A stretch of 64,000 nt of DNA from an uncultured Methanosarcinales archaeon (GCA_964545585.1 CAZJFT010000001.1:6056-70055), one strand, 5' to 3'. Numbered from the stretch's first letter, positions 1 to 54,342 are shown. Translations and numbers: made by a program. Notes: a model not told the origin generated them from the sequence alone.

Positions 1-1199
1 GCATATTCTTTATTATTCCATGCTTCTTTTGTTATATAGATTTTGTCTTCAGTCTGCGATTTCAATGTTGCCATGAACACTCTTCCTGAAGGTATCTCTC
101 CTTTTACGAAATCGACGACCTCTAAGTCTATGACTGCAGAATTCTGCTCATAGAATTTCTTGCAATGCATCAATGCAGTATCTATATTGACGCCATAATT
201 CACGTTTTTCAGGTAAAGGAATGGGAATATCCTATAGTTCGGCTGCATCTTAAGTTTAAAATTCGGATTGAAAGTTGAATGTATGGGGAAAAAATCCCTC
301 AACTGCTGCGAAGCCCTATTCAGGAGCAAAGGATCGTACAATAATTTTGTGGCATCCACCTCTTGAGTTTTTCCTCGAGCATCTTTTTCGATCTTAGGAT
401 ATAACGAAAGTGATTTAAGTTGTGCATCCACTTGATCATCTAGTGTCGAAGTCACTTTCATGTAGAACTGTTTCCTGCCTTTCTTGTCGGCGAACTCTAT
501 CTTTGTTTTTATGTCTATATTGTTCTTGAGCAGGGCGTCACGGCTTATTTTGCCTCTAGTCATATAATAGAATTTGTCGAACTCTTTTTCAGAAGAGAAA
601 ACCTTAGAAGTGTATACATTTATACGGAATTTTTTCCTGTCGAGCTTCTTCAACACGTCATTAGTGCACAATAATTCTAAATTCGTGAAGTTGAAAGTCA
701 CATCTTCATAGTCTATTTCAGGAATATTCGACAAGTCATCTTGTATCTTGCATAGTTCTTCTAATTGAAAGGACTCATAAGTTCTTGCTTTGTATTTTTT
801 TTCAGGATTCCTGAAGAATATCTGTTTGTTTTTGACGAAGAATTCTAGGTTTTTTGCATCTTCTCTGTTGCCCCTATGCCACACTATGAATGAACTGTTG
901 GAATCTTCAGGAAGATCAAATGATTCATTCGCAGAATTATTTTTTAGTTTGCCGTACGGCAATGCCTGGAATGAATTATCAGGATATTTTTTTCTGAGTT
1001 TAGAAACTAATTCTTGAGGAGCGATATTATGTTTTGATGGGATCAATTCCCTGGTTACGGTTATCCTCCAGAAATCATCAATCTTAGTCTTCAGTTCATA
1101 TGTGTCTGTATCAAAATACTCAACTAAGACCTTTTGGCCTTCATGACCGACAGGTTTTATGTCTAATATATATGAATCCATTAAACCCCCCATATGCAT
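1..1199 (-). CDS. Hypothetical protein, N-terminal ~399 aa (gene continues beyond window start; not in ORF track because it runs off the edge)
   Basis: Manual translation of minus strand from ATG at 1199 (alternative starts 1193/1181: MHMGGLMDSYILDIKPVGHEGQKVLVEYFDTD...) stays open to position 1; no recognisable family motif. Confidence 0.4.
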   Translation of the reverse strand, partial: MHMGGLMDSYILDIKPVGHEGQKVLVEYFDTDTYELKTKIDDFWRITVTRELIPSKHNIAPQELVSKLRKKYPDNSFQALPYGKLKNNSANESFDLPEDSNSSFIVWHRGNREDAKNLEFFVKNKQIFFRNPEKKYKARTYESFQLEELCKIQDDLSNIPEIDYEDVTFNFTNLELLCTNDVLKKLDRKKFRINVYTSKVFSSEKEFDKFYYMTRGKISRDALLKNNIDIKTKIEFADKKGRKQFYMKVTSTLDDQVDAQLKSLSLYPKIEKDARGKTQEVDATKLLYDPLLLNRASQQLRDFFPIHSTFNPNFKLKMQPNYRIFPFLYLKNVNYGVNIDTALMHCKKFYEQNSAVIDLEVVDFVKGEIPSGRVFMATLKSQTEDKIYITKEAWNNKEY

Positions 1200-3768: not shown

Positions 3769-5088
3769 TCATTTCAACTGTATCCTATGGCCATTCTTCA
3801 ATAGGAATACGTTCTTGTTCTCCCTATAGCCTAATTCTTCTGCAAGCTCCAGGAATTGCTCTGCAGTCGCTATCTCAGAATGTGTGGGGATTAGATTTTT
3901 CGGATTGATGATATTTATCAGATCCCTTGCATCCTCTCTAGCGCCATGTCCTGACACATGGATGTCACGGAATATCCTAACTTTTTTCTTCTTCAACTCT
4001 GCTTCCATCTTTTCCCTGTTCTTTATGTTTTCCTCTCCAGGGATTATCGTGCATGAGAATATGACTATGTCTTCCTTCCTGAACTTGAAATAATTGTTGA
4101 ATATCATCCTTGCAAGCACGGATTTAGGCTCTCCTTGATGTCCTGTGACTATGAAAACATAATCTTCTGGCTTCTTGCACTTCTTAAGGAAATCTTGCAC
4201 TTGCTGCCTATATTTTATTATCTTCCCAGTTTTTGAAAACTCTATCACTTTTATGTTCTCTCCTGCGCGCACATACTTCTCAAGACTTCTCCCTAAGAAG
4301 ACGACTTTCCTGTTCAATTGTTTCGCAAATTCCATTATACTTTTCAACCTTGCAAGATGGCTTGAAAATGTACTTACAATCATGGCTTTTCCCTTACTGT
4401 TGGTGGATATCATCACTTCCCTGAGAAGCTCCTTCGCCACAGATTCAGAAGGAGTCTTTATTGGCTTCCCGGCATACAATGAATCCATTATCATGACTTT
4501 CACATCCTTCAACTGTGACATCCTTCCAAGATTCGACTTGCTACCTAAAGTTGGTTGGTTGTCAAGCTTGAAATCATTCGCATACACGACTTTCCCATAC
4601 TTTGTATGTATCACGACCATCGCCGTATGTATCACTGAATGCGTGATGCTTATGAATTCTATCTTGATATTTTCAGATACCTTGAATATGCTATTCACAT
4701 CATGTGCGATAAGCTTGTTAGGGACTCGTATCTCCTTGTCCTCAAGCAAGACCTTCAACACCTCTATTGTGTAAGGTGTCCCATGTATCGGACAATCGAA
4801 TTCTGGCGCAAGGAACGGCGCTGCTCCAACGTGATCAAGATGTGCATGACTTATGCATATCGCTTTCACCTTAGGAACCCAATCCTTCATGACACGTATG
4901 TCTGGCACCGCCTCCAATTCCGTCAATGTCTTCAAAGAAAGATCGACATCATCGTCGTCTTGCGTATAATTTATGTAATTCTGCAGGTGCAATCCCATAT
5001 CGAGAATTATCACTTCATCATCAACCTTGACTGCTGTGCAGTTCTTTCCTACTTCTCTATAGCCCCCTACGGGCATTATTTCTATCAT
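3769..5088 (-). CDS. rnj: RNase J-like metallo-beta-lactamase/beta-CASP ribonuclease
   Basis: 439 aa; N-terminus MIEIMPVGGYREVGKNCTAV; HxHxDH motif ISHAHLDHVGAAP; size fits archaeal RNase J (no KH domains, so not aCPSF1). Confidence 0.7.
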   Translation of the reverse strand: MIEIMPVGGYREVGKNCTAVKVDDEVIILDMGLHLQNYINYTQDDDDVDLSLKTLTELEAVPDIRVMKDWVPKVKAICISHAHLDHVGAAPFLAPEFDCPIHGTPYTIEVLKVLLEDKEIRVPNKLIAHDVNSIFKVSENIKIEFISITHSVIHTAMVVIHTKYGKVVYANDFKLDNQPTLGSKSNLGRMSQLKDVKVMIMDSLYAGKPIKTPSESVAKELLREVMISTNSKGKAMIVSTFSSHLARLKSIMEFAKQLNRKVVFLGRSLEKYVRAGENIKVIEFSKTGKIIKYRQQVQDFLKKCKKPEDYVFIVTGHQGEPKSVLARMIFNNYFKFRKEDIVIFSCTIIPGEENIKNREKMEAELKKKKVRIFRDIHVSGHGAREDARDLINIINPKNLIPTHSEIATAEQFLELAEELGYRENKNVFLLKNGHRIQLK

Positions 5089-5788: not shown

Positions 5789-5880
5789 AAGTGTGCTATA
5801 AGTATCGTTTAGGATACCCGTCTCTTTAAAAAGTTTGTGATTATTGAAGAGTAGTTACAAATAAGCCGTATTAAGAAAAA

Positions 5881-6033
5881 TGCGGGGGGTAGGACATTCG
5901 CCGTCTATTACGGATTCGAACCCACGAAGGCACTAAGCCAACAGATATCTCAACTATCCATATGCGAATAGCGGATAGGCATTTGCCTCAGAGTGCTTGA
6001 GTCTGTCCCATTTGGCCACTCTGGAACCCCCGC
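5881..6033 (-). tRNA. tRNA-Leu (anticodon CAA), intron-containing (two predicted introns)
   Basis: Minus-strand sequence: acceptor 5' GCGGGGG and 3' CCCCCGC + discriminator A. Class-II D arm CCA-GAGTGGCCAAA-TGG. Anticodon stem ACAGA / TCTGT, perfectly paired only if a ~49-nt intron after position 37 (CTCAAG|...) is removed. T arm GTGGG-TTCGAAT...CCTAC pairs only if ~20 nt (CCGTAATAGACGGCGAATGT) inside the T-loop region is removed. Variable arm GGC-TTAGT-GCC. TATA-like tttataaa ~25 nt upstream (6056-6063). Confidence 0.6.
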
Positions 6034-6094
6034 ATGAACAGAAGAATTAAACAAGGATTTATAAAACTTATCCTGACGCAATTATACTACGCGC

Positions 6095-18485: not shown

Positions 18486-19592
18486 TTGAGCACAAAATTT
18501 AAAATCAAACAACAATTTCATCAAATAATGCTAAACAAATATGCTAAGGAAGAACTTGAAAGACAACAATATAGGATAATAGGAGAACATTCTGCAGTAA
18601 AGGTATGCGGCTGGACAAAGAACATGATCAAAGGACAGGGTGGATGTTACAAGCTAAAATTCTATGGCATAATGAGCAATCAATGCATGCAGATGACGAC
18701 AAGCATGAGCTGCGCAAATAGATGTACATTCTGCTGGAGAGGATACAAAGCCCCCGTAAGTAAGGACTGGAAATGGGGAGTTGATGAACCTGAAATGATA
18801 CTCAAAGAGAGCATAAAAGCACATCATAAACTCCTTGAAGGATATGGAGGGATGCAGCATGCAAAAGCGGCATACCAAAAATCAAAGACAGTCAAACATG
18901 TGGCATTATCACTCACTGGTGAGCCGATAATATATCCAAAAATCAACGAGATAATTGAAGGGTTCAACAAGGAAGGGATAAGCACATTCCTTGTCACGAA
19001 TGCACAATATCCTGAAGCAATAAGGGATTTGAAGCCGGTAACGCAACTATATATAAGTCTAGATGCTCCGAACAAGGAATTATTGAAAGAGGTAGACCTG
19101 CCATTATTTGATGATTATTGGGAAAGACTCAATCAAAGCCTGGTTTATCTATCCCAGAAGAAGCAGCGCACATGCATAAGGATAACTGTGATAAAATCTG
19201 TCAATGACATAGAGCCCGATAAATATGCAGAATTGATAATGAAAGGAAACCCTGATTTTATTGAAGTCAAGGCATACATGCACGTAGGCGCTTCAAGACT
19301 TAGATTGAAAAGAGAGAACATGCCATTGCATGATGAAGTCACGGCATTCACAAAGGAATTGATTAAGCATTTGCCTGATTATGAGATGGTCTCAGAACAT
19401 AGGCCTTCAAGAGTGTGGATGCTTGCAAAAAAGAAGTTCAATATTGATGGAAAATGGTTTACATGGATAGATTTTGAGAAATGGAATGCGCTTGTGAATT
19501 CTGATGTTGAACCTTTAACAATGGATTACCTCAAATTGACAACTGTAGAGTCTGGCGCTGAAGAGAAGATAGAAGAGACGGCGCTAGATTAG
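18486..19592 (+). CDS. taw1: tRNA 4-demethylwyosine synthase Taw1 (TYW1, radical SAM)
   Basis: 368 aa; GCYKLKFYGI...CANRCTFCWRG radical-SAM/TYW1 signature. Confidence 0.8.
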   Translation: MSTKFKIKQQFHQIMLNKYAKEELERQQYRIIGEHSAVKVCGWTKNMIKGQGGCYKLKFYGIMSNQCMQMTTSMSCANRCTFCWRGYKAPVSKDWKWGVDEPEMILKESIKAHHKLLEGYGGMQHAKAAYQKSKTVKHVALSLTGEPIIYPKINEIIEGFNKEGISTFLVTNAQYPEAIRDLKPVTQLYISLDAPNKELLKEVDLPLFDDYWERLNQSLVYLSQKKQRTCIRITVIKSVNDIEPDKYAELIMKGNPDFIEVKAYMHVGASRLRLKRENMPLHDEVTAFTKELIKHLPDYEMVSEHRPSRVWMLAKKKFNIDGKWFTWIDFEKWNALVNSDVEPLTMDYLKLTTVESGAEEKIEETALD

Positions 19593-33676: not shown

Positions 33677-34401
33677 CAAAGAAACTTGAGAGGATAATTG
33701 CAGAATACAAGACATTGAGCAACAATCATTATAGGGAATATTCTAATAATAAGTATGTCAAGGAATTCCAAGAATTCTATGAAGGGATAAAATTCCTCAA
33801 AAAATATTTCAGGGATCCTGAGATAAAAAAAGTAAAAGAACGACATACAGAAGCAATACATGAAGATCTCGTCAACCATCATAATTATTCTTATAAGTTT
33901 GCGACAAAGATAGCAAGAGCTGTGCCGATGCCTATAGAGAACAGGATAGGAAGAGCGTTTGTCGCGTTCGGACTTGGAATGAGTTTAGGGAGAATACACG
34001 AAGAGAATGTAGACTTGATAACAAAATATTCGGGATTGACAAAAAAAGAATATAGATGGGGTTGTGTCGTTGCGGAGGCATTGAACAATCCATTTAGTGC
34101 AATTCAACAAGGAATTGGTGGTTTGATAGTAGATTATGTTGTGAATGAAGGATATGGTGCAATCACTGGCGACAACAGTAAACCCATAAATACAAATGAT
34201 TATTACCCTTATGCATATCTTGCAGTCGCATATTTGGACACTATAAAGTCTGCCATAGACAACTTCCGAGGAAAAAGATATAGAGATAATAAACTAATGA
34301 TTACTAGGTTGCCTTCAATAATAACATATAGTTTTAGTCTTGCACACAGAAGATATCTGCGTAAAGCAGCTAAACAATCTGGAAATCTACACATATCCTG
34401 A
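33673..34401 (+). CDS. Hypothetical protein
   Basis: 242 aa; ATGA overlap with upstream MTase. Confidence 0.4.
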   Translation: MTKKLERIIAEYKTLSNNHYREYSNNKYVKEFQEFYEGIKFLKKYFRDPEIKKVKERHTEAIHEDLVNHHNYSYKFATKIARAVPMPIENRIGRAFVAFGLGMSLGRIHEENVDLITKYSGLTKKEYRWGCVVAEALNNPFSAIQQGIGGLIVDYVVNEGYGAITGDNSKPINTNDYYPYAYLAVAYLDTIKSAIDNFRGKRYRDNKLMITRLPSIITYSFSLAHRRYLRKAAKQSGNLHIS

Positions 34402-35395
34402 ATACATGCGGGGCGTGCTGACCGCATCTGACTAAATCAAGAATCTTGCATTTGATCTTGTTCTTTTTGCATGCATCCGCTATCTTCTTCTTTGCCTCGT
34501 CAAAGCTTTTATCATCCAAAAAATCATAGAAGTGGACTATCGTTCCTTTTTTTGAAACTGAAAGCGCGTCGTCAAGGAATTCGTCAGCAGTCTTCGGAAG
34601 CGGCATGATTATCCTGTCGAATTTCATGTTTTTCTTTTTCAATTCTGGAACAACATCATGGACATCGCCGCATATCAATTCTACATTCTTGCACTTGTTC
34701 AATTTTATGTTTTCAAGACCATATTTGTGTCCATCAGGGTTTATCTCTATCCCTAAAATAGATTTTGCCTTCGTGTTTTTCGATAAGACGACAGGATACG
34801 GTGCTGCGCCAGAGAACATGACAAGAATCTCTTCTCCTGCTTTTACTTGTTTCATTATCCTCTTCCGTTCATTACCCAATCTTATTGAAAAGTAGACTTT
34901 CTCTACATCAAGCTTCATGACTGTCCCGTTCTCTTTGTAAAGCGTCTCTTTAGTTTTTATTCCTGCAAGATATTCCATCTTCTGAGTCCTGAAAACTCCT
35001 CCATGTATCGCCGCTTTCTTCAACACAGTCTTCACATTCTTGTTTGTTTTGAGAAGAGTCTCTGCAATCAATCTCTCGTGATGCTCCAAATCTTTAGGTA
35101 TCTCAAGGATTGCAATATTTCCTATTATGTCATGTGCAGTCTTTACGAAATCCATCTCTTCTTTAGATAATTTTCCAGAAAGGTTCTCTTTCAAAGTTCC
35201 AGAGGTCTTTACCTTATCTAAATCCATTTCCACAAAATCAACATTCCCTTTCAACACTTCGAATTTCCTCTTTACAGGAAAGTATATGAAATTCTTGTCC
35301 TTCTTGAACCTGAACCTAGTGTCGAATCCATCTGTATCTAAAAGATAAGTTTTCCACTTCTCAGCATCCTTCAAGGGAACCTTCAATGCTAGCAT
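34370..35395 (-). CDS. trm5: tRNA (m1G37) methyltransferase Trm5/Taw22-like (Met-10+ family)
   Basis: 341 aa; ILVMFSGAAPYPVVL...GIEINPDGHKYGLENIKLNKC...IMPLP SAM-MTase core typical of Trm5/TYW2. Confidence 0.65.
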   Translation of the reverse strand: MLALKVPLKDAEKWKTYLLDTDGFDTRFRFKKDKNFIYFPVKRKFEVLKGNVDFVEMDLDKVKTSGTLKENLSGKLSKEEMDFVKTAHDIIGNIAILEIPKDLEHHERLIAETLLKTNKNVKTVLKKAAIHGGVFRTQKMEYLAGIKTKETLYKENGTVMKLDVEKVYFSIRLGNERKRIMKQVKAGEEILVMFSGAAPYPVVLSKNTKAKSILGIEINPDGHKYGLENIKLNKCKNVELICGDVHDVVPELKKKNMKFDRIIMPLPKTADEFLDDALSVSKKGTIVHFYDFLDDKSFDEAKKKIADACKKNKIKCKILDLVRCGQHAPHVFRICVDFQIV

Positions 35396-36510: not shown

Positions 36511-37620
36511 TTACACATACCTCTCTACATATCTTTCCGCTTTCTCAAGCTCTTTCTGATGATGCTCGAGGAATGCAGACATCTTATCTATTAGAATCTG
36601 TTTCAATTCACCGCTCAACATCTTTCCTGATTTATAATCTTGATAGATTTCAGAAAGTCTCTTGTCATCTGGCTCGAAGAAGTATTTCAAGTATTGAAAA
36701 GATACGTCGATATCTGGATTGCCACCATATTTCCTGTGCGCTTCCAAAGTATCTCTGCCTCCAGAGAATGCGTATTTCTTTATCTTTTTCTCTGCTTCCT
36801 TTGGAGTGTCAGTCAATGCTATGTACGAATTAGGGTCTGAGCTTGACATCTTCCCGCCAGATAATCCTGGCATGAACAGGTGATATGTCGAGCATAATTC
36901 CTTGAATTGAAACTCTTTGCATCTCGATGCTACATCCCTCGCAAGTCTTATGTGAGGGTCCTGATCTATTCCCACCGGAACAACAACAGGTATCGGCCCT
37001 TCGAATTCTTTCAACTGTGGATGCAGCATATCTGCTGCCTGAAGAAGCGCCGAAAGCATCTTCCCTGGCGATATCTCCCCGTAGACTGCACGGAATTCAT
37101 TGAATGTTGCATGTCTTGCAAGGATATTCTGAAGCCTATAATATGAATTTGCCTTTTCCTGATGCTTGCTCCTGTTGCTCTGGAAATATATCTCAAGATT
37201 TTCTGGCTTCAACCCGAGCGCAATGTAATTCTTTATGTACTGCTCTATTGCGATTTTCCTTGATTCTTCAAGTGATTGGTTACGCGCATTATATGCCTCT
37301 ATGTCTGCAACAGCAATATAGAGTTTTGCACCGAGGCCCTGATAGAATATCATCTGCTGCGCCACGAGCATATGTCCTATATGGAATTTTCCTGTAGGCA
37401 TCAAACCAGTCATCATGATGAACGGTTTCTTATTATGTACAGAGCTTATTATCTGTCCAAATCCTCTATGAGCAAATATTGTCTTTCTCCTGAAAAGGAC
37501 ATTTTCCTTGAATGCTTCTGGAAGTGAATCTAGGTCTTTCAATTCCTCTACGCCGAAATCCTTCATCAGTTTCTGGTAATCTATATCTCCTTCAACTTGC
37601 CATGGATTGAATACGTTCAT
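36511..37620 (-). CDS. trpS: Tryptophanyl-tRNA synthetase (class Ic)
   Basis: 369 aa; HIGH-type motif PTGKFHIGH, GIDQDPHIRLARD, KMSKS-type KMSSSDPNS; size favours Trp over Tyr. Confidence 0.6.
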   Translation of the reverse strand: MNVFNPWQVEGDIDYQKLMKDFGVEELKDLDSLPEAFKENVLFRRKTIFAHRGFGQIISSVHNKKPFIMMTGLMPTGKFHIGHMLVAQQMIFYQGLGAKLYIAVADIEAYNARNQSLEESRKIAIEQYIKNYIALGLKPENLEIYFQSNRSKHQEKANSYYRLQNILARHATFNEFRAVYGEISPGKMLSALLQAADMLHPQLKEFEGPIPVVVPVGIDQDPHIRLARDVASRCKEFQFKELCSTYHLFMPGLSGGKMSSSDPNSYIALTDTPKEAEKKIKKYAFSGGRDTLEAHRKYGGNPDIDVSFQYLKYFFEPDDKRLSEIYQDYKSGKMLSGELKQILIDKMSAFLEHHQKELEKAERYVERYV

Positions 37621-40592: not shown

Positions 40593-41195
40593 TTAAGGTT
40601 TTAACCATTTTATCTCATAATATGTAACGTCTCCTTCATCATCGACTATTCCCATCATCAATCGCTTCTTTGTAGAATGAGCGACCCTGTTCTTTGCTGC
40701 GAACTCATACCATGTTAATGTGCTGCCTTCATGTACAGGATAGATTATCCATCGTGCGTGATCCTCCCCTGGCTTGACACCCCTGTCATATACCCTGAAG
40801 TCTGCACCGAACTTCAATGCAGTCTTTATTATATAACCCCTATTACGCATATCTTTGAATACACAATATCGTATATAGAAATTCGGCTCTAACTTGGTGG
40901 CTTTCTTCAGCAATGATTCGAAATTCAATGATTTGTTGCGTGAATCCTTCAACTCTAACTTGTTCTTCTCAAGCAGATATAACGCTTCAAGCAATGACAA
41001 TTGAAGCTTCCCTGACTCAAGAAGTGTACCATACCTTGATTGATTATAAAGCTCTCTAGTCTCATCGGAGGAATCTGCAATAACACGCTCATTCGCAAAT
41101 ACTGCCTTGACTTTCTCTTTTCTCGGTTTGCTATCTATTATGATGTCCTTCACTTTAAGCTTTGTCAAGTCCGTTTCTACTATATCCTCTGGCAT
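40593..41195 (-). CDS. endA: tRNA-splicing endonuclease EndA
   Basis: 200 aa; EALYLLEKNKL, YIRYCVFKDMRNRGYIIKTALKFGADFRVY, catalytic His in HARWIIYP. Confidence 0.8.
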   Translation of the reverse strand: MPEDIVETDLTKLKVKDIIIDSKPRKEKVKAVFANERVIADSSDETRELYNQSRYGTLLESGKLQLSLLEALYLLEKNKLELKDSRNKSLNFESLLKKATKLEPNFYIRYCVFKDMRNRGYIIKTALKFGADFRVYDRGVKPGEDHARWIIYPVHEGSTLTWYEFAAKNRVAHSTKKRLMMGIVDDEGDVTYYEIKWLKP

Positions 41196-41288: not shown

Positions 41289-41768
41289 ATGAATGAGTTG
41301 TTGTACGTTGGCCTGAACAACAGGGATCTAGAAGAAAAGATATCACGGGTCGTTCTACCACTGACCGAATATGATCTGGACGCAGGATTGAAAACACTAT
41401 CTGAACTTAAAGATAAGAAAGTGATACATTACACAAAAAATGAGCATGGGTGGCAGTACTGGCCGATACAAGAAGTTAAAGATATCAGACACATCAAAAG
41501 ATCCGGCCTGACATCATTAGCTAGAGAGATATTGTTGCCGTTCATTAAATTCGGAGAAGGAGTGGAGATAATGCTGGAAAATAGCAAAATAATGATACCG
41601 TTGAACGAATCACATAATTACAAAATAATAAGCTATCAGATGGGAAATTCGCCAAAGTATTATATGGGAAATGATTTCTTTGCAATAAGCATCCCGACAG
41701 AGTTCCATTCAAAAAAAGATTTTTCTAAGCACGTACTTACGTTCTGGAAACCAAATGGGTTTGATTAA
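41289..41768 (+). CDS. Hypothetical protein (start moved to internal Met to avoid antisense overlap with endA)
   Basis: ORF track gives 41040..41768; first 83 codons lie antisense to endA; MNELLYVGLN... at 41289 is the likely start. Confidence 0.4.
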   Translation: MNELLYVGLNNRDLEEKISRVVLPLTEYDLDAGLKTLSELKDKKVIHYTKNEHGWQYWPIQEVKDIRHIKRSGLTSLAREILLPFIKFGEGVEIMLENSKIMIPLNESHNYKIISYQMGNSPKYYMGNDFFAISIPTEFHSKKDFSKHVLTFWKPNGFD

Positions 41769-41817: not shown

Positions 41818-42735
41818 ATGGAACTGACATTCTTAGGGACATCATGCATGGTGCCTACAAAAGAGAGAAACGTGACGGGAATCTTTCTTAGTTATGACAC
41901 TTACGGATTATTATTCGACTGCGGAGAAGGCACGCAGAGACAGATGAATATAGCAGGCATAAACAGGAATAAAGTTACTCATGTTTTCATATCTCATTGG
42001 CATGGCGATCACGTCTCAGGATTGATTGGATTGATACAGACCCTTGGAAATCAGAATGCACAGAATGAGGATAGGAAAAAATTAATCATATTCGGGCCTA
42101 GAGAGACAGAGAAGAGGATAGAGCATTTATTGCAGACATGCATATTCGACAATAAGCTCGTGATGGAAGTGCATGAGATAAATCCTAAGAAAAATGAGCG
42201 ATTGCTGGTTCTTGACAGGGAAGAATTCTATATAGAGGCAGCAGCGCTTGACCACGGAATACCTTGCCTAGGATACAGGTTTGTAGAGAAGGATGCTCGT
42301 AAGATTGACATGAAGAAAGCTACCGCAATGGGATTGACTGAAGGACCTTTGATAGGGAAGATACAACGAGGAGTCGATGTCGAATTGAATGGCAAGACAA
42401 TTACACCAGACATGGTATCAACAATAAAGAAAGGAAAAAAGATAGGGATAGTCTTGGATACGGGATTATGCCCCGGAGCGACATTGACTGCAGAAGATGT
42501 CGACCTGCTTATTTGTGAGGCATCATATGCATCGGACATTGAGGAGAAAGCAGAGAACAACAAGCATCTGACAGCGAAACAAGCAGCATTGCTCGCGTCT
42601 AACACGAACGTGAAAAAGTTAATTCTTACACATCTTTCTCAAAGATACAAGACACCGGGCGAGGTATTGGAAGATGCTCGCGACGTATTCGAGAACGTAG
42701 AAGTCGCATATGATTTCATGAAAGTGAAATTGTAA
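41818..42735 (+). CDS. rnz: Ribonuclease Z (tRNA 3' endonuclease)
   Basis: 305 aa; MELTFLGTS...LFDCGEGTQRQM...HVFISHWHGDHVSGL metallo-beta-lactamase RNase Z signature. Confidence 0.85.
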   Translation: MELTFLGTSCMVPTKERNVTGIFLSYDTYGLLFDCGEGTQRQMNIAGINRNKVTHVFISHWHGDHVSGLIGLIQTLGNQNAQNEDRKKLIIFGPRETEKRIEHLLQTCIFDNKLVMEVHEINPKKNERLLVLDREEFYIEAAALDHGIPCLGYRFVEKDARKIDMKKATAMGLTEGPLIGKIQRGVDVELNGKTITPDMVSTIKKGKKIGIVLDTGLCPGATLTAEDVDLLICEASYASDIEEKAENNKHLTAKQAALLASNTNVKKLILTHLSQRYKTPGEVLEDARDVFENVEVAYDFMKVKL

Positions 42736-42748
42736 TTAGAAAATAAAA

Positions 42749-43543
42749 TCATTGATCATCCAGCGGGCTTTTAACATTGATGCTTGTTCTTGCTGTATGT
42801 AAATAAACCATTGTCGTCTCAACACTTATATGTCCAAGCAATGATTGCACAGCCGTAATACCATAACCATCCTCAATCAAGTGCGTAGCGAATGAATGCC
42901 TGAATGTATGCGGATGCACATCTTTTTTGACTCCAGAATCTCTACATGCTCTCTTTATTATCTCCTGTACGCTTCGCATACTATAATGTGCCCCCTTATT
43001 CCCCATAAATAGGTAATGGGCCCCAAAATAATTCTTTAATTCTTCAGATACTGATTTTGGCAGTATGAACATCCTATCCTTTCCACCCTTCCCATTCCTC
43101 ACATAACCTATAAAATTTTGTAAATCAATATCTTCAGGCCTTAACCTCACCACTTCTGACACTCTCAATCCTGCACCATACATCAATGAGATAATCAGTT
43201 TCTGTTTAGGATTATTTATGGCATCGATTATTCTTCTGACCTCTTCTTTTGTCAGGCATGTTGGCAGCCTCTTCGGTCTCTTCGCATACCTTAATCCTAG
43301 ATTCATATTCTTATGCAGGACTTCGACCATCATGAACCTTAAGGCGGCATGCACAACATTTATGGTGTTGCCTGGACTATTCTTATATCTCTCCAAAAAC
43401 AATCTGATGTCCTTCTTTGATATCTTCTTAGGATCAGGATGCCTCTTTAAGAAATGCCTGATAAAAAGCAGATATGTGACCCTAGTTTTTGGGCTCAGAC
43501 GTCTAAACTCCATCTCCTCTCGACATGCCTCTAGAACATCCAT
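42749..43543 (-). CDS. xerA: Tyrosine recombinase (XerA/XerC/D-like)
   Basis: 264 aa; catalytic region HPHTFRHSFATHLIEDGYGITAVQSLLGHISVETTMVYLH (R..HxxR...Y); too short for an IntI-type additional domain. Confidence 0.8.
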   Translation of the reverse strand: MDVLEACREEMEFRRLSPKTRVTYLLFIRHFLKRHPDPKKISKKDIRLFLERYKNSPGNTINVVHAALRFMMVEVLHKNMNLGLRYAKRPKRLPTCLTKEEVRRIIDAINNPKQKLIISLMYGAGLRVSEVVRLRPEDIDLQNFIGYVRNGKGGKDRMFILPKSVSEELKNYFGAHYLFMGNKGAHYSMRSVQEIIKRACRDSGVKKDVHPHTFRHSFATHLIEDGYGITAVQSLLGHISVETTMVYLHTARTSINVKSPLDDQ

Positions 43544-46577: not shown

Positions 46578-46640
46578 TCTGCGGACTCTTCGAGTCCTTG
46601 CCTCACTAGCGTTCGGGGTGCTTAACACGCGATTAGTTTC
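46564..46640. repeat. GC-rich mosaic spacer element 4
   Basis: atagtggcgctactctgcggactcttcgagtccttgcctcactagcg (direct copy of element-1 block; hairpin GGACTCttcGAGTCC) + attagtttcaattc (direct copy from element 2). Confidence 0.55.
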
Positions 46641-48276
46641 AATTCTCTTTCTTCTTCACAATCTTCTTTTTCCTTCCAGAAGTGTTGTTTGCCATCCATA
46701 TTTTCCGCGATGCGTATTGTGCCGGATTTTTTATCTTTGGGCAAAATCCGTCTGGGTGGCAGAATTGTGTGTCTATCATGTATCCTTTATTGTCGCAATT
46801 AGGGGGAGATAATTTCTCTTTTTGTGACTTATGATATCGTAGTTGTCCTTTGATGTATGTCTCGCGTAATTTGTCCGGAGAATTTCTTTCGTTCCATTTC
46901 AAAACATACTCCGCTATCCTTTCATGTGGCCAATTGCATGATGAAAGGAAGTTTATCAATATCAACAATGCACGCTTCTTGCCATCCTCTAACCCGGCAG
47001 ATATGTGTTGTATGCATGGAGGGAAGTATTCTTCAGGGATTGCCTGCGCATTCTCTTCAATATTAGAGTCTTTTTTATATTCTCTCTTATATGTCTCTTT
47101 CAATGAATCCTTCTTCTGTTTCTCCGTCTGGAAATCGAATGCTTTCTGGAATAATTGCTCTGCCTCTGAAGACTTGCACGATTCTCTTTCTAAGAAAGCG
47201 TAAGGTTTGAACTTCGAAGGCTCTGCTTCTGATTTCTCGAATTTCAATATTCTCTTTATGTCGAACGGCATCGAGACAAGGCCGGTCTTTTCATGAAGTG
47301 AATAAGGCATCCTGTAAAGGTGCCTTGAACTTATCAGTATCGTGTCTACTGCAACTATCTTTGAGAGGTCGAACTCTTTGCGAACAGAGTCGGAGCCGCA
47401 CTTGCATATGCTCTTCTTGATAGGGTGTTTCTCCATAATCTTCTTGCATTTAGGGCATTGCATGAACGGCTTATCTGCGTCCTCAAGAGAATTTTCACAA
47501 TATGGACAGATATATTGTATCCTGTCCTTAGGCATCTCTTTTATTGAAGAATCACATTTATTGCACTTTATGACTATCATATCTTCTTTCTTTGTGCCTG
47601 TCTCTGATTCGAGTCGAGATATCGGAACAGACACTTTTCCAAAGCGTATCTTCTCTTCATCCACAACAATAAGATTCTTATCGACATAATCGACTATATA
47701 TGCCGCAATCCTTCTAGGTCCGTCAGGGAAAAGGTCCTTCACATCAAAATATTTACCGTCAAGATAATATTGTTTTTTAGGGAATGCTTCAAACGGAACA
47801 GCGATATGGAAACCTTTTGAACCGGAGAATTTTACAGTCACTGAATCGATCCCGTGGTCCTTCAATGCTTTTATGAAAACGTAAGCTGCAAGCTTGCTGA
47901 ACGTCCAGTAAGGACAGTCAATATCTAATATCAAATCCCATCCCTTGCGCAGATCATCTATCTCATTCTTTTTCAAATTAGGATTTATCTGCAACGGATT
48001 AGACCATAATTCCTCAGAGCAATGGAATGAAGTGGCCCCTTTCTTAGCAGACTCAAGAATATCATTCTCATACATCAATGTGTCAGGACGCTTTCCGAAT
48101 GATTCATTATAACGAACAGCAATCTCCTTATCCATAGCATACATTAGAAGAAGTTTCTGGACCTCTTTTCTCTTATAATATGATAATGTCTGATGGAGCT
48201 CAAGCATGAAGGATGAGAATAAGACTGCGTTTATATAGGTTTTTGTAGAATGTCTAGTGCTTGCACTCAACAGCAT
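46639..48276 (-). CDS. priS: DNA primase, fused PriS catalytic domain + PriL-CTD-like Fe-S domain (true start possibly at an internal Met downstream of the fur overlap)
   Basis: PriS core DLILDIDCPYWTF...SVTVKFSGSKGFHIAVPF; Zn ribbon CNKCD...CPYC; C-terminal PPCIQHISAGLEDGKKRALLILINFLSSCNW...PPNCDNKGYMIDTQFCHPDGFCPKI resembles the PriL C-terminal domain. Confidence 0.7.
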   Translation of the reverse strand: MLLSASTRHSTKTYINAVLFSSFMLELHQTLSYYKRKEVQKLLLMYAMDKEIAVRYNESFGKRPDTLMYENDILESAKKGATSFHCSEELWSNPLQINPNLKKNEIDDLRKGWDLILDIDCPYWTFSKLAAYVFIKALKDHGIDSVTVKFSGSKGFHIAVPFEAFPKKQYYLDGKYFDVKDLFPDGPRRIAAYIVDYVDKNLIVVDEEKIRFGKVSVPISRLESETGTKKEDMIVIKCNKCDSSIKEMPKDRIQYICPYCENSLEDADKPFMQCPKCKKIMEKHPIKKSICKCGSDSVRKEFDLSKIVAVDTILISSRHLYRMPYSLHEKTGLVSMPFDIKRILKFEKSEAEPSKFKPYAFLERESCKSSEAEQLFQKAFDFQTEKQKKDSLKETYKREYKKDSNIEENAQAIPEEYFPPCIQHISAGLEDGKKRALLILINFLSSCNWPHERIAEYVLKWNERNSPDKLRETYIKGQLRYHKSQKEKLSPPNCDNKGYMIDTQFCHPDGFCPKIKNPAQYASRKIWMANNTSGRKKKIVKKKEN

Positions 48277-53664: not shown

Positions 53665-54342
53665 ATGGAAGAAAGAGTTCAGAAGATAATGGCTAATTCA
53701 GGATACTGCTCCAGAAGGCATGCTGAGGAGCTCATATCAAAAGGAAAAGTATTCGTCAACGGAAAGAAGATCAAGCTCGGCGATAAGGCAGATGCAGAAA
53801 AGGACGAGATAATGGCGAACGATGAAGTCATACGTAAAGAAAAACCTATATATATAATGCTCAACAAGCCGAAACATTACGAGGTGAGCATGGCTCCGGA
53901 CACAAAGAATGTGTTTGCACTCGTGGGCCTGCCTCAGAGAATCATAGCGGTAGGAAGGCTTGACAAGAACACGACAGGACTGCTTCTTTTGACTAATGAT
54001 GGCGACTTCGCTAACAAGATAACACATCCGCGATACGAGAAAGAGAAGACATATTATGTAAAACTCGATAAGAGAATTGAAGAGAAGGATATTAAAAAAC
54101 TTGAGCAAGGAGTGAACCTACAGGATGGATGGATAAAGGCAAAAGTGAAAGTCTATCAGAAAGACCAGATAGAGATAACTATACATGAAGGCAAGAAGCA
54201 CATAATAAAAAGGCTGTTGTTCAAGCTAGGATACTTCGTCAAGGAGCTTGCACGCGTGAAGATAGGAAATTTAAGGATGGATGTCAAGATAGGCAAATGG
54301 AGATACTTGACGAAGAAAGAAGTAGATGATTTGATGAGATGA
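53665..54342 (+). CDS. Pseudouridine synthase, RsuA/RluB family with N-terminal S4 domain
   Basis: 225 aa; S4 motif GYCSRRHAEELISKGKVFVNGKKI; catalytic block AVGRLDKNTTGLLLLTNDG (RLD...GLLL). Confidence 0.8.
   Translation: MEERVQKIMANSGYCSRRHAEELISKGKVFVNGKKIKLGDKADAEKDEIMANDEVIRKEKPIYIMLNKPKHYEVSMAPDTKNVFALVGLPQRIIAVGRLDKNTTGLLLLTNDGDFANKITHPRYEKEKTYYVKLDKRIEEKDIKKLEQGVNLQDGWIKAKVKVYQKDQIEITIHEGKKHIIKRLLFKLGYFVKELARVKIGNLRMDVKIGKWRYLTKKEVDDLMR

Follow-up and report, generated by a model that had tools for sequence, protein, structure and literature searches.

The stretch of DNA analysed here, referred to as the window, is 64 kb long and derives from an archaeal chromosome with a G+C content of about 38%. 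On its minus strand lies a locus that we read as a tRNA-Leu(CAA) gene with two predicted introns. The gene, its parts and its putative expression signals are as follows:

5881..6033, minus strand: tRNA-Leu(CAA) gene, whole, 153 nt, with G1 at 6033 and the discriminator A at 5881
5996..6033, minus strand: exon 1, 38 nt, with the acceptor 5' strand, D arm, anticodon stem 5' strand and loop to G37
5999..5997, minus strand: anticodon CAA, within exon 1
5995..5947, minus strand: intron 1, 49 nt, at the canonical position 37/38, given as i(39,49) by ARAGORN in intron mode
5915..5946, minus strand: exon 2, 32 nt, with A38, the anticodon stem 3' strand and the long variable arm
5914..5895, minus strand: intron 2, 20 nt, TCCGTAATAGACGGCGAATG, in the T-loop between A59 and T60
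5881..5894, minus strand: exon 3, 14 nt, with T60, CCTAC, CCCCCGC and the discriminator A
6057..6073, minus strand: putative BRE/TATA promoter GGATAAGTTTTATAAAT, its TATA centre about 29 nt upstream of G1
5873..5880, minus strand: T-run TTTTTCTT, directly 3' of the discriminator base

Exon 2 also holds the 5' strand of the T stem and the T-loop TTCGAA up to A59, and CCA is not encoded at the 3' end of the gene. Read on the minus strand from 6033, the 5' half is GCGGGGG TT CCA GAGTGGCCAAA TGG G ACAGA CTCAAG, followed by 49 nt, and the 3' part is A TCTGT TGGCTTAGTGCCTTC GTGGG TTCGAA, followed by 20 nt and then T CCTAC CCCCCGC A. The acceptor stem is formed by GCGGGGG and CCCCCGC with the discriminator A, and the D stem has 3 bp (CCA/TGG) in the style of class-II tRNAs. 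The anticodon stem ACAGA/TCTGT is split by CTCAAG, 49 nt and A, and the T stem GTGGG/CCTAC by TTCGAA, 20 nt and T. The sequence-only reading had described a 153-nt minus-strand locus with these acceptor halves and a class-II D arm, all of which we found where it had placed them, and it had postulated two introns of about 49 and 20 nt; the exact parse gives 49 and 20 nt, and their removal restores a full cloverleaf.

The predicted spliced junctions are CTCAAG-ATCTGT between exons 1 and 2 and GGGTTCGAA-TCCTAC between exons 2 and 3. The resulting 84-nt doubly spliced product has an acceptor stem of 7 bp, a D stem of 3 bp, an anticodon stem and a T stem of 5 bp each, a long variable arm, the T-loop UUCGAAU, the anticodon CAA and the discriminator A73, as a class-II tRNA-Leu should, and ARAGORN classifies it as class-II tRNA-Leu(caa). 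The identity Leu, CAA assigned from the sequence was thereby confirmed with a program that had been suggested as a check, the call appearing once both segments were deleted. When intron 2 alone was deleted, ARAGORN made a call in intron mode only (tRNA-Leu(caa), intron at position 39, length 49), and no call was made when intron 1 alone was deleted. In the raw 64-kb window, ARAGORN reported 0 tRNA genes, intron mode and a lowered threshold included, and Rfam gave no tRNA match at gathering in the raw window and none at E<=10 in the raw locus. With 69 nt of inserts, the lack of an RF00005 match to the raw gene is as expected.

Archaeal introns are recognised through the bulge-helix-bulge (BHB) motif, in which a 4-bp helix lies between two bulges of 3 nt, each of which is cleaved after its second nucleotide. 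The cleavage rule used here reportedly goes back to Marck and Grosjean in 2003 and to EndA-RNA structures. In canonical introns, nucleotide 32 pairs with intron position -3, and this served as a check on the canonical parse. Both junction pairs of the locus can adopt such a motif:

5941..6006, minus strand: BHB motif 1, ACAGA / CTCA / AG^C / ACT...AGT / TGAG / AT^A / TCTGT
5889..5925, minus strand: BHB motif 2, strict hBHBh', GTGGG / TTCG / AA^T / CCGT-AATAG-ACGG / CGAA / TG^T / CCTAC

Motif 2 forms when the 153-mer is folded without constraints to its minimum free energy (MFE), and it forms again in the local fold. Motif 1 is recovered in part by the local fold, which shows helices h and H and a 3' bulge of 3 nt. 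Its h' helix (ACU/AGU) is 3 bp long and competes with a 7-bp hairpin within the intron, and in the local MFE fold the 5' splice site lies in a loop of 9 nt where the strict motif has a 3-nt bulge. Intron 1 may thus have its 5' site in a larger loop part of the time. Both introns passed a scan for strict motifs (3-nt bulge, 4-bp helix, 3-nt bulge; h of at least 5 with G-U allowed, H of 4 Watson-Crick pairs, h' of at least 3, inner length <120). The expectation that the junctions would be BHB-type splice sites was thus borne out by fold check and scan, a strict hBHBh' being possible at both. Since the scan returned 34 motifs in 128 kb (both strands), the two real ones counted, a single BHB is weak evidence. 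By our own arithmetic, the chance of a 4-bp Watson-Crick H and a 3-bp h' at one fixed junction pair is about 2e-4, so that chance is far from accounting for two such motifs exactly at the junctions that restore the cloverleaf.

Cleavage by this rule leaves ...UUCGAA^ and ^U-CCUAC, which is position 59/60. The sequence-only reading had placed an intron inside the T-loop; the location holds, and the cleavage rule puts the site at 59/60. The same reading had seen in the insert a near-duplicate of the exon sequence CGAAT. The sequence is present and is part of the BHB, but it bears no duplication signature: CGAA is the intron strand that pairs with TTCG (T54-G57), and its resemblance to an exon copy comes from the palindromic nature of TTCGAA. 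Mobile copies of intron 2 were also considered and dropped, as no other copy was found in the window at <=3 mismatches. A C/D-box guide RNA in intron 1 was likewise rejected, CUGA being seen by eye and the UGAUGA box being absent.

Energy evaluation gave -39.2 kcal/mol for the cloverleaf with both BHB motifs, compared with -58.1 kcal/mol for the MFE structure. Such a shortfall of the naked RNA is not unusual in tRNAs, the folding of which is aided by tertiary contacts and proteins. The MFE fold is dominated by a pairing in which CAGAGUG of the D arm (6023..6017) perfectly complements the first 7 nt of intron 1, CACUCUG (5995..5989). Neither segment changes in the two orthologues described below, hence there is no covariation, and a 7-bp match is expected about 0.7 times by chance within 153 nt (own arithmetic); on both grounds, a function for this pairing is unproven.

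Two loci share the genomic context of the gene. One (L004) comes from an assembly labelled Candidatus Woesearchaeota archaeon KatS3mg002 (BPGB01000003.1, tRNA at 506..640), and the other (L006) is a metagenome contig with a syntenic tRNA-Leu(CAA). The pattern used to scan the genome collection was one N longer than the exon type of the window, and L004 matched owing to an extra G. In all three, genes for an M3 peptidase, a 185-aa ORF, RNase J, the tRNA and an EamA transporter follow in the same order, the neighbour of the tRNA in the window being:

3769..5088: RNase J, about 0.8 kb from the tRNA, the adjacency kept in L004 and L006

The nucleotide identity of RNase J to the window is 81% in L006 and 77.5% in L004. 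Between the window and L006 the exons show zero differences, and the sole exon differences to L004 are two 1-nt insertions, whereas intron 1 is identical at 44/49 positions in L006 and 38/49 in L004. The constancy of the exons, while introns and RNase J diverge, argues for purifying selection on the exons. Changes within the intron 1 hairpins keep their pairing, the Hb strand TGAG becomes TGGG in L006 with a U-G pair retained, and h' is kept as AGT in L006 and as GGT (U-G pair) in L004. The two insertions in L004 are a G added to the 5' strand of the anticodon stem (ACAGGA vs ACAGA) and an additional C that separates the T stem from the 3' strand of the acceptor; they are either homopolymer assembly errors or the mark of a structurally odd, possibly defective gene. 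Intron 2 behaves differently. In L006, 18 nt are found at 59/60 (A-AGC-TTATT-GCT-CGAA-TT), with 10/20 positions shared with the window, five of which are the CGAAT of the H strand, and in L004 the T arm is without interruption, the empty site reading GTGGGTTCGAATCCTAC. The RF00005 model also misses raw L004 and L006.

The 17-mer GGATAAGTTTTATAAAT is invariant in the window, L006 and L004, with diverging bases on its flanks, which is consistent with an archaeal BRE/TATA promoter. The T-run TTTTTCTT is likely to act as transcription stop and 3' trailer; T-rich runs lie 3' of the tRNA gene in L006 and L004 as well.

In addition, metagenomes were searched with a pattern that had first been verified on the window, and 120 metagenome loci were obtained. 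About 100 of the 122 retrieved genes appear intronless, with lengths of 82-84 nt. The spliced window sequence is identical to the closest of these at 72-75 of 83-84 positions (74/84 for L082), and the three intronless genes checked, L020, L082 and L098, match RF00005 at 51-54 bits; a fourth gene, with an 18-nt intron, has an Rfam tRNA score of 41 bits. Inserts at 59/60 of tRNA-Leu(CAA) occur in at least 5 other lineages among the matches, four of which (L015, L019, L036/L115 and L072; inserts of 28-101 nt) parse to the same BHB layout, ha(5) - TTCG - AA^N - h' - Hb - NN^T - hb(5). With L006 included, the layout of the window is found in 6 other loci (L006, L015, L019, L036/L115, L072). The T stems covary across the 59/60 loci (GTGGG/CCTAC, GGGGG/CCCTT, GTCGG/CCGGT, GTCGG/CCGGC), and the Hb strand is CGAA, CGGA, CGTG or AGAA. 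Their h' helices are unrelated in sequence and run for 3-10 bp straight from the junction; L036/L115 are the exception, with a 7-bp helix that begins after a T-T mismatch. Rule-based removal of each insert resulted in a tRNA detected by ARAGORN, the raw sequences giving none; L015 and L019 were given another amino acid because the program picked a different register for the anticodon intron.

Some retrieved loci depart from this layout. L005 (Ga0180433_10000390) carries an insert in the variable arm and one of about 100 nt at 59/60, and is without a canonical intron, and L007 (Ga0209541_10012622) apparently has three inserts, at 37/38, after the variable arm and at 59/60. A strict BHB parse was tried for both and does not fit, h' not being adjacent to the bulges; their T-loop motifs look relaxed. 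In L011 (ERZ1292629 contig), the tRNA-Leu(CAA) 3' end GAATCCTCCCTCCCGCA together with >100 nt of downstream sequence recurs as a direct repeat about 170 nt further on. The repeat lies some 330 nt downstream from where the tRNA starts and looks like a tandem or att-like duplication at a tRNA 3' end.

Two enzymes that could process such a transcript are encoded in the window as well:

40593..41195, minus strand: tRNA-splicing endonuclease EndA, 200 aa, with PF02778 (N-terminal) and PF01974 (catalytic, C-terminal)
41818..42735, plus strand: RNase Z, 3'-trailer endonuclease, 305 aa, TIGR02651 at 320.2 bits (cutoff 292.95)

EndA matches TIGR00324 at 122.8 bits (cutoff 59.6), and among proteins of solved structure it is closest to the catalytic alpha subunit of N. 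equitans (3e-38) and to the alpha4 EndA of M. jannaschii (7e-36), the latter aligning nearly end to end. Residues Tyr136, His146 and Lys177 align with the catalytic residues of M. jannaschii, which we take to be Y115/H125/K156, and the acidic L10 loop is retained (VDDEGD vs VDADGD in M. jannaschii). The Tyr-His spacing has the M. jannaschii length, whereas the N. equitans alpha subunit has six extra residues. From the end-to-end alignment, the triad, the L10 loop and the lack of a Tyr-His insertion, the protein looks like a plain alpha4-type subunit, although a partner (beta) subunit may be encoded elsewhere in the genome. The ORF at 41289..41768, between EndA and RNase Z, was considered as such a subunit and dropped, as it shows no similarity to EndA, no Pfam match and no meaningful PDB match. 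Among the window ORFs scanned, no RtcB ligase gene was found. The proximity of EndA and RNase Z, 35 kb off, had been pointed out together with the tRNA; both genes are real by their profile matches, but they are not linked to it. They are housekeeping genes of the same chromosome, which show that the machinery exists, and the 35-kb distance implies nothing.

Directly downstream of RNase Z, at 42749..43543 on the minus strand, lies a tyrosine recombinase of the phage-integrase family (264 aa), which could be a chromosomal XerA-type resolvase or part of an integrated element. Just past it, at 44-46 kb, the G+C content falls to 31%.

The gene content of the window includes TBP, MCM, PolD DP2, Hjc, PAN, FEN1, gyrase A and ScpB. 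Further genes are:

46639..48276, minus strand: fused PriS-PriL primase, 545 aa, with PF01896 and PF04104 in one ORF
18528..19592: Taw1, wyosine radical-SAM enzyme
34370..35395: Trm5
36511..37620: class-I Trp/Tyr-type aminoacyl-tRNA synthetase
53665..54342: RluA-type pseudouridine synthase

A fused primase is a feature known from Nanoarchaeota and other DPANN genomes.

A pathway can be proposed in which the sequence-level steps are read from the DNA and every RNA-level step is taken over from the established archaeal pathway. Transcription would start at the conserved BRE/TATA element and end at the T-run. In the pre-tRNA, each junction pair would fold into a helix, a 3-nt bulge, a 4-bp helix, a second 3-nt bulge and a helix, with CUCA of the anticodon loop (32-35) pairing with UGAG near the 3' end of intron 1, UUCG of the T-loop (54-57) pairing with CGAA near the 3' end of intron 2, and the small hairpin CCGU/ACGG of intron 2 providing the outer helix. 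EndA would cut after the second nucleotide of every bulge and free introns of 49 and 20 nt, and an RtcB-type ligase, none of which is found in the window, would join the exons of 38, 32 and 14 nt. RNase P and RNase Z would trim the ends, and CCA would be added enzymatically, as it is not encoded. The end product would be an 84-nt class-II tRNA-Leu with a normal UUCGAAU T-loop, and because both motifs are strict, a broad-specificity endonuclease would not be required.

We contend, with a probability of about 90%, that the locus is a functional, spliced, chromosomal two-intron tRNA-Leu(CAA) gene of a Woesearchaeota-like (DPANN) archaeon, its splicing being predicted. It might instead be a pseudogene, a tRNA-Leu inactivated by the 20-nt T-loop insertion with an incidental BHB-like fold. 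The raw locus indeed goes unrecognised by tRNA finders and Rfam, the closest named genome, L004, is without the insert, and under loose criteria strict BHB-like motifs arise by chance about once per 4 kb. A decaying gene, however, would sit badly with exons that equal those of L006 whereas introns, flanks and neighbour genes have diverged by 10-50%, and with a conserved promoter element. Moreover, the insert makes a perfect 3-4-3 motif in the MFE fold, and the 59/60 layout recurs in several independent lineages with different yet pairing inner helices; we consider inactivation very improbable. That no gene exists and the resemblance to a tRNA is fortuitous finds support in nothing but the negative ARAGORN and Rfam calls on raw DNA. 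It deserves next to no credence and is refuted by the comparison with other loci, given the perfect 84-nt cloverleaf after splicing, the existence of syntenic orthologues and the 74/84 identity to L082, an Rfam-verified intronless tRNA-Leu(CAA).

A real two-intron tRNA could also be spliced in a slightly different manner, with intron 2 in register 60/61 or 58/59 or with a relaxed (hBH-like) 5' site of intron 1. Removal of CCGTAATAGACGGCGAATGT (60/61) yields the identical mature sequence, so that the product cannot discriminate between 59/60 and 60/61; the rule of the second bulge nucleotide, on the other hand, gives the symmetric 59/60 in 7/7 parsed loci, with T60 always left. As to intron 1, the 9-nt loop of the local MFE fold speaks for a relaxed site, and against it a 3-bp h' (ACU/AGU) is available and kept in L006 (AGT) and L004 (GGT, U-G). 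We judge these variants very improbable and retain the strict reading of both introns, at 37/38 and 59/60.

The distribution of intron 2 is of interest for its origin. It is present in the window and in L006 with unrelated inner sequences, not in the syntenic L004, and again in several distant lineages. It can tentatively be speculated, with more doubt than confidence, that in Woesearchaeota-like DPANN archaea the 59/60 intron of tRNA-Leu(CAA) is a BHB element that has been gained or replaced repeatedly. The palindromic TTCGAA T-loop would be a ready-made half of a BHB, in which any insert ending in CGAA-NN completes the 4-bp helix, and this would explain 59/60 as a hot spot. If so, a plain alpha4-like EndA without a specificity loop could process an intron at a non-canonical position, contrary to the usual association of such introns with (alpha-beta)2 or epsilon2 enzymes. 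With the intron present in one locus, diverged in the second and missing from the third, the three offer a good natural case in which to test how introns are gained, lost or replaced, and together with the palindromic T-loop as half a BHB motif they bear on the origin of 59/60 introns.

The gene also has consequences for genome annotation. As ARAGORN and Rfam miss it, the genome would appear to be without a tRNA-Leu with a CAA anticodon, the cognate reader of UUG, although a second, intronless tRNA-Leu(CAA) gene may lie elsewhere in the genome. Other disrupted tRNA genes in the window could be hidden from both tools in the same way; a crude GTTCRAW scan of the window brought up no other candidate that clearly combines a T arm with an acceptor stem. 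That the tRNA sets predicted for DPANN lineages are incomplete has already been remarked upon (PMC5829648). A gene hidden in this way affects estimates of tRNA complement and completeness for DPANN assemblies.

Several known systems are comparable. Multiple-intron tRNA genes of Crenarchaeota/Thermoproteales are reportedly treated by Marck and Grosjean in 2003 and by Sugahara et al. in 2008, and a review covers them (PMC4090602). Like the present locus, these genes combine a canonical and a non-canonical BHB intron, and intron presence or absence varies between close relatives. They differ in their (alpha-beta)2 EndA with a Crenarchaea-specific loop and in their many relaxed motifs; here both motifs are strict and the G+C content is ~38%. 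Position 59/60 is listed among the non-canonical archaeal tRNA intron positions, these lineages included (PMC4090602). The statement in the sequence-only reading that multiple and non-canonical introns are known in archaea is accurate, T-loop introns at 59/60 being documented (PMC4090602, PMC3239211).

A closer parallel is offered by ARMAN-2 (Ca. Micrarchaeum), also a DPANN archaeon, which has short BHB introns at 59/60 of the T-loop and more than one intron per gene. In its tRNA-Pro(GGG), positions 53/54 and 59/60 are each interrupted by an intron of the strict hBHBh' type (Fujishima et al. 2011, PMC3239211), and the 59/60 intron of its tRNA-Cys was cleaved in vitro by ARMAN-2 EndA (PMC3239211). 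The present gene differs in being a tRNA-Leu(CAA), as against pre-tRNA-Pro(GGG) and pre-tRNA-Cys(GCA), in its Woesearchaeota-like lineage, and in its second intron, which is at the canonical 37/38 and not at 53/54 as in tRNA-Pro(GGG). The EndA of ARMAN-2 is of the epsilon2 type, with three units and a specificity loop; that of the window has 200 aa and a single unit and resembles the alpha4 enzyme of M. jannaschii. Enzymes of the alpha4 and alpha'2 types need a strict 3-4-3 hBHBh' motif (PMC3239211), a requirement that fits the present gene, as both of its motifs are strict.

A survey of DPANN that included one Woesearchaeota genome found alpha4-type EndAs alongside disrupted tRNA genes in raised numbers (Kaneta et al. 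2018, PMC5829648). The genomes of that set belong to the same superphylum and likewise combine a single-subunit EndA with non-canonical or multiple introns (PMC5829648). Unlike the trend reported there, which is tied to an insertion in the L3 loop, the EndA of the window is without the 6-residue insert of N. equitans, if that insert corresponds to L3, as we infer. Introns at 59/60 and two-intron tRNAs are thus already documented in archaea, DPANN included, and the tRNA-Leu(CAA) gene adds one example while leaving the known picture of archaeal tRNA splicing unchanged. What it contributes is a clean, strict BHB intron predicted at a non-canonical T-loop site in a genome with a simple, alpha4-looking EndA, and together with its two orthologues it offers a test of the view that alpha4 enzymes are limited by how strict a motif is and not by where it lies.
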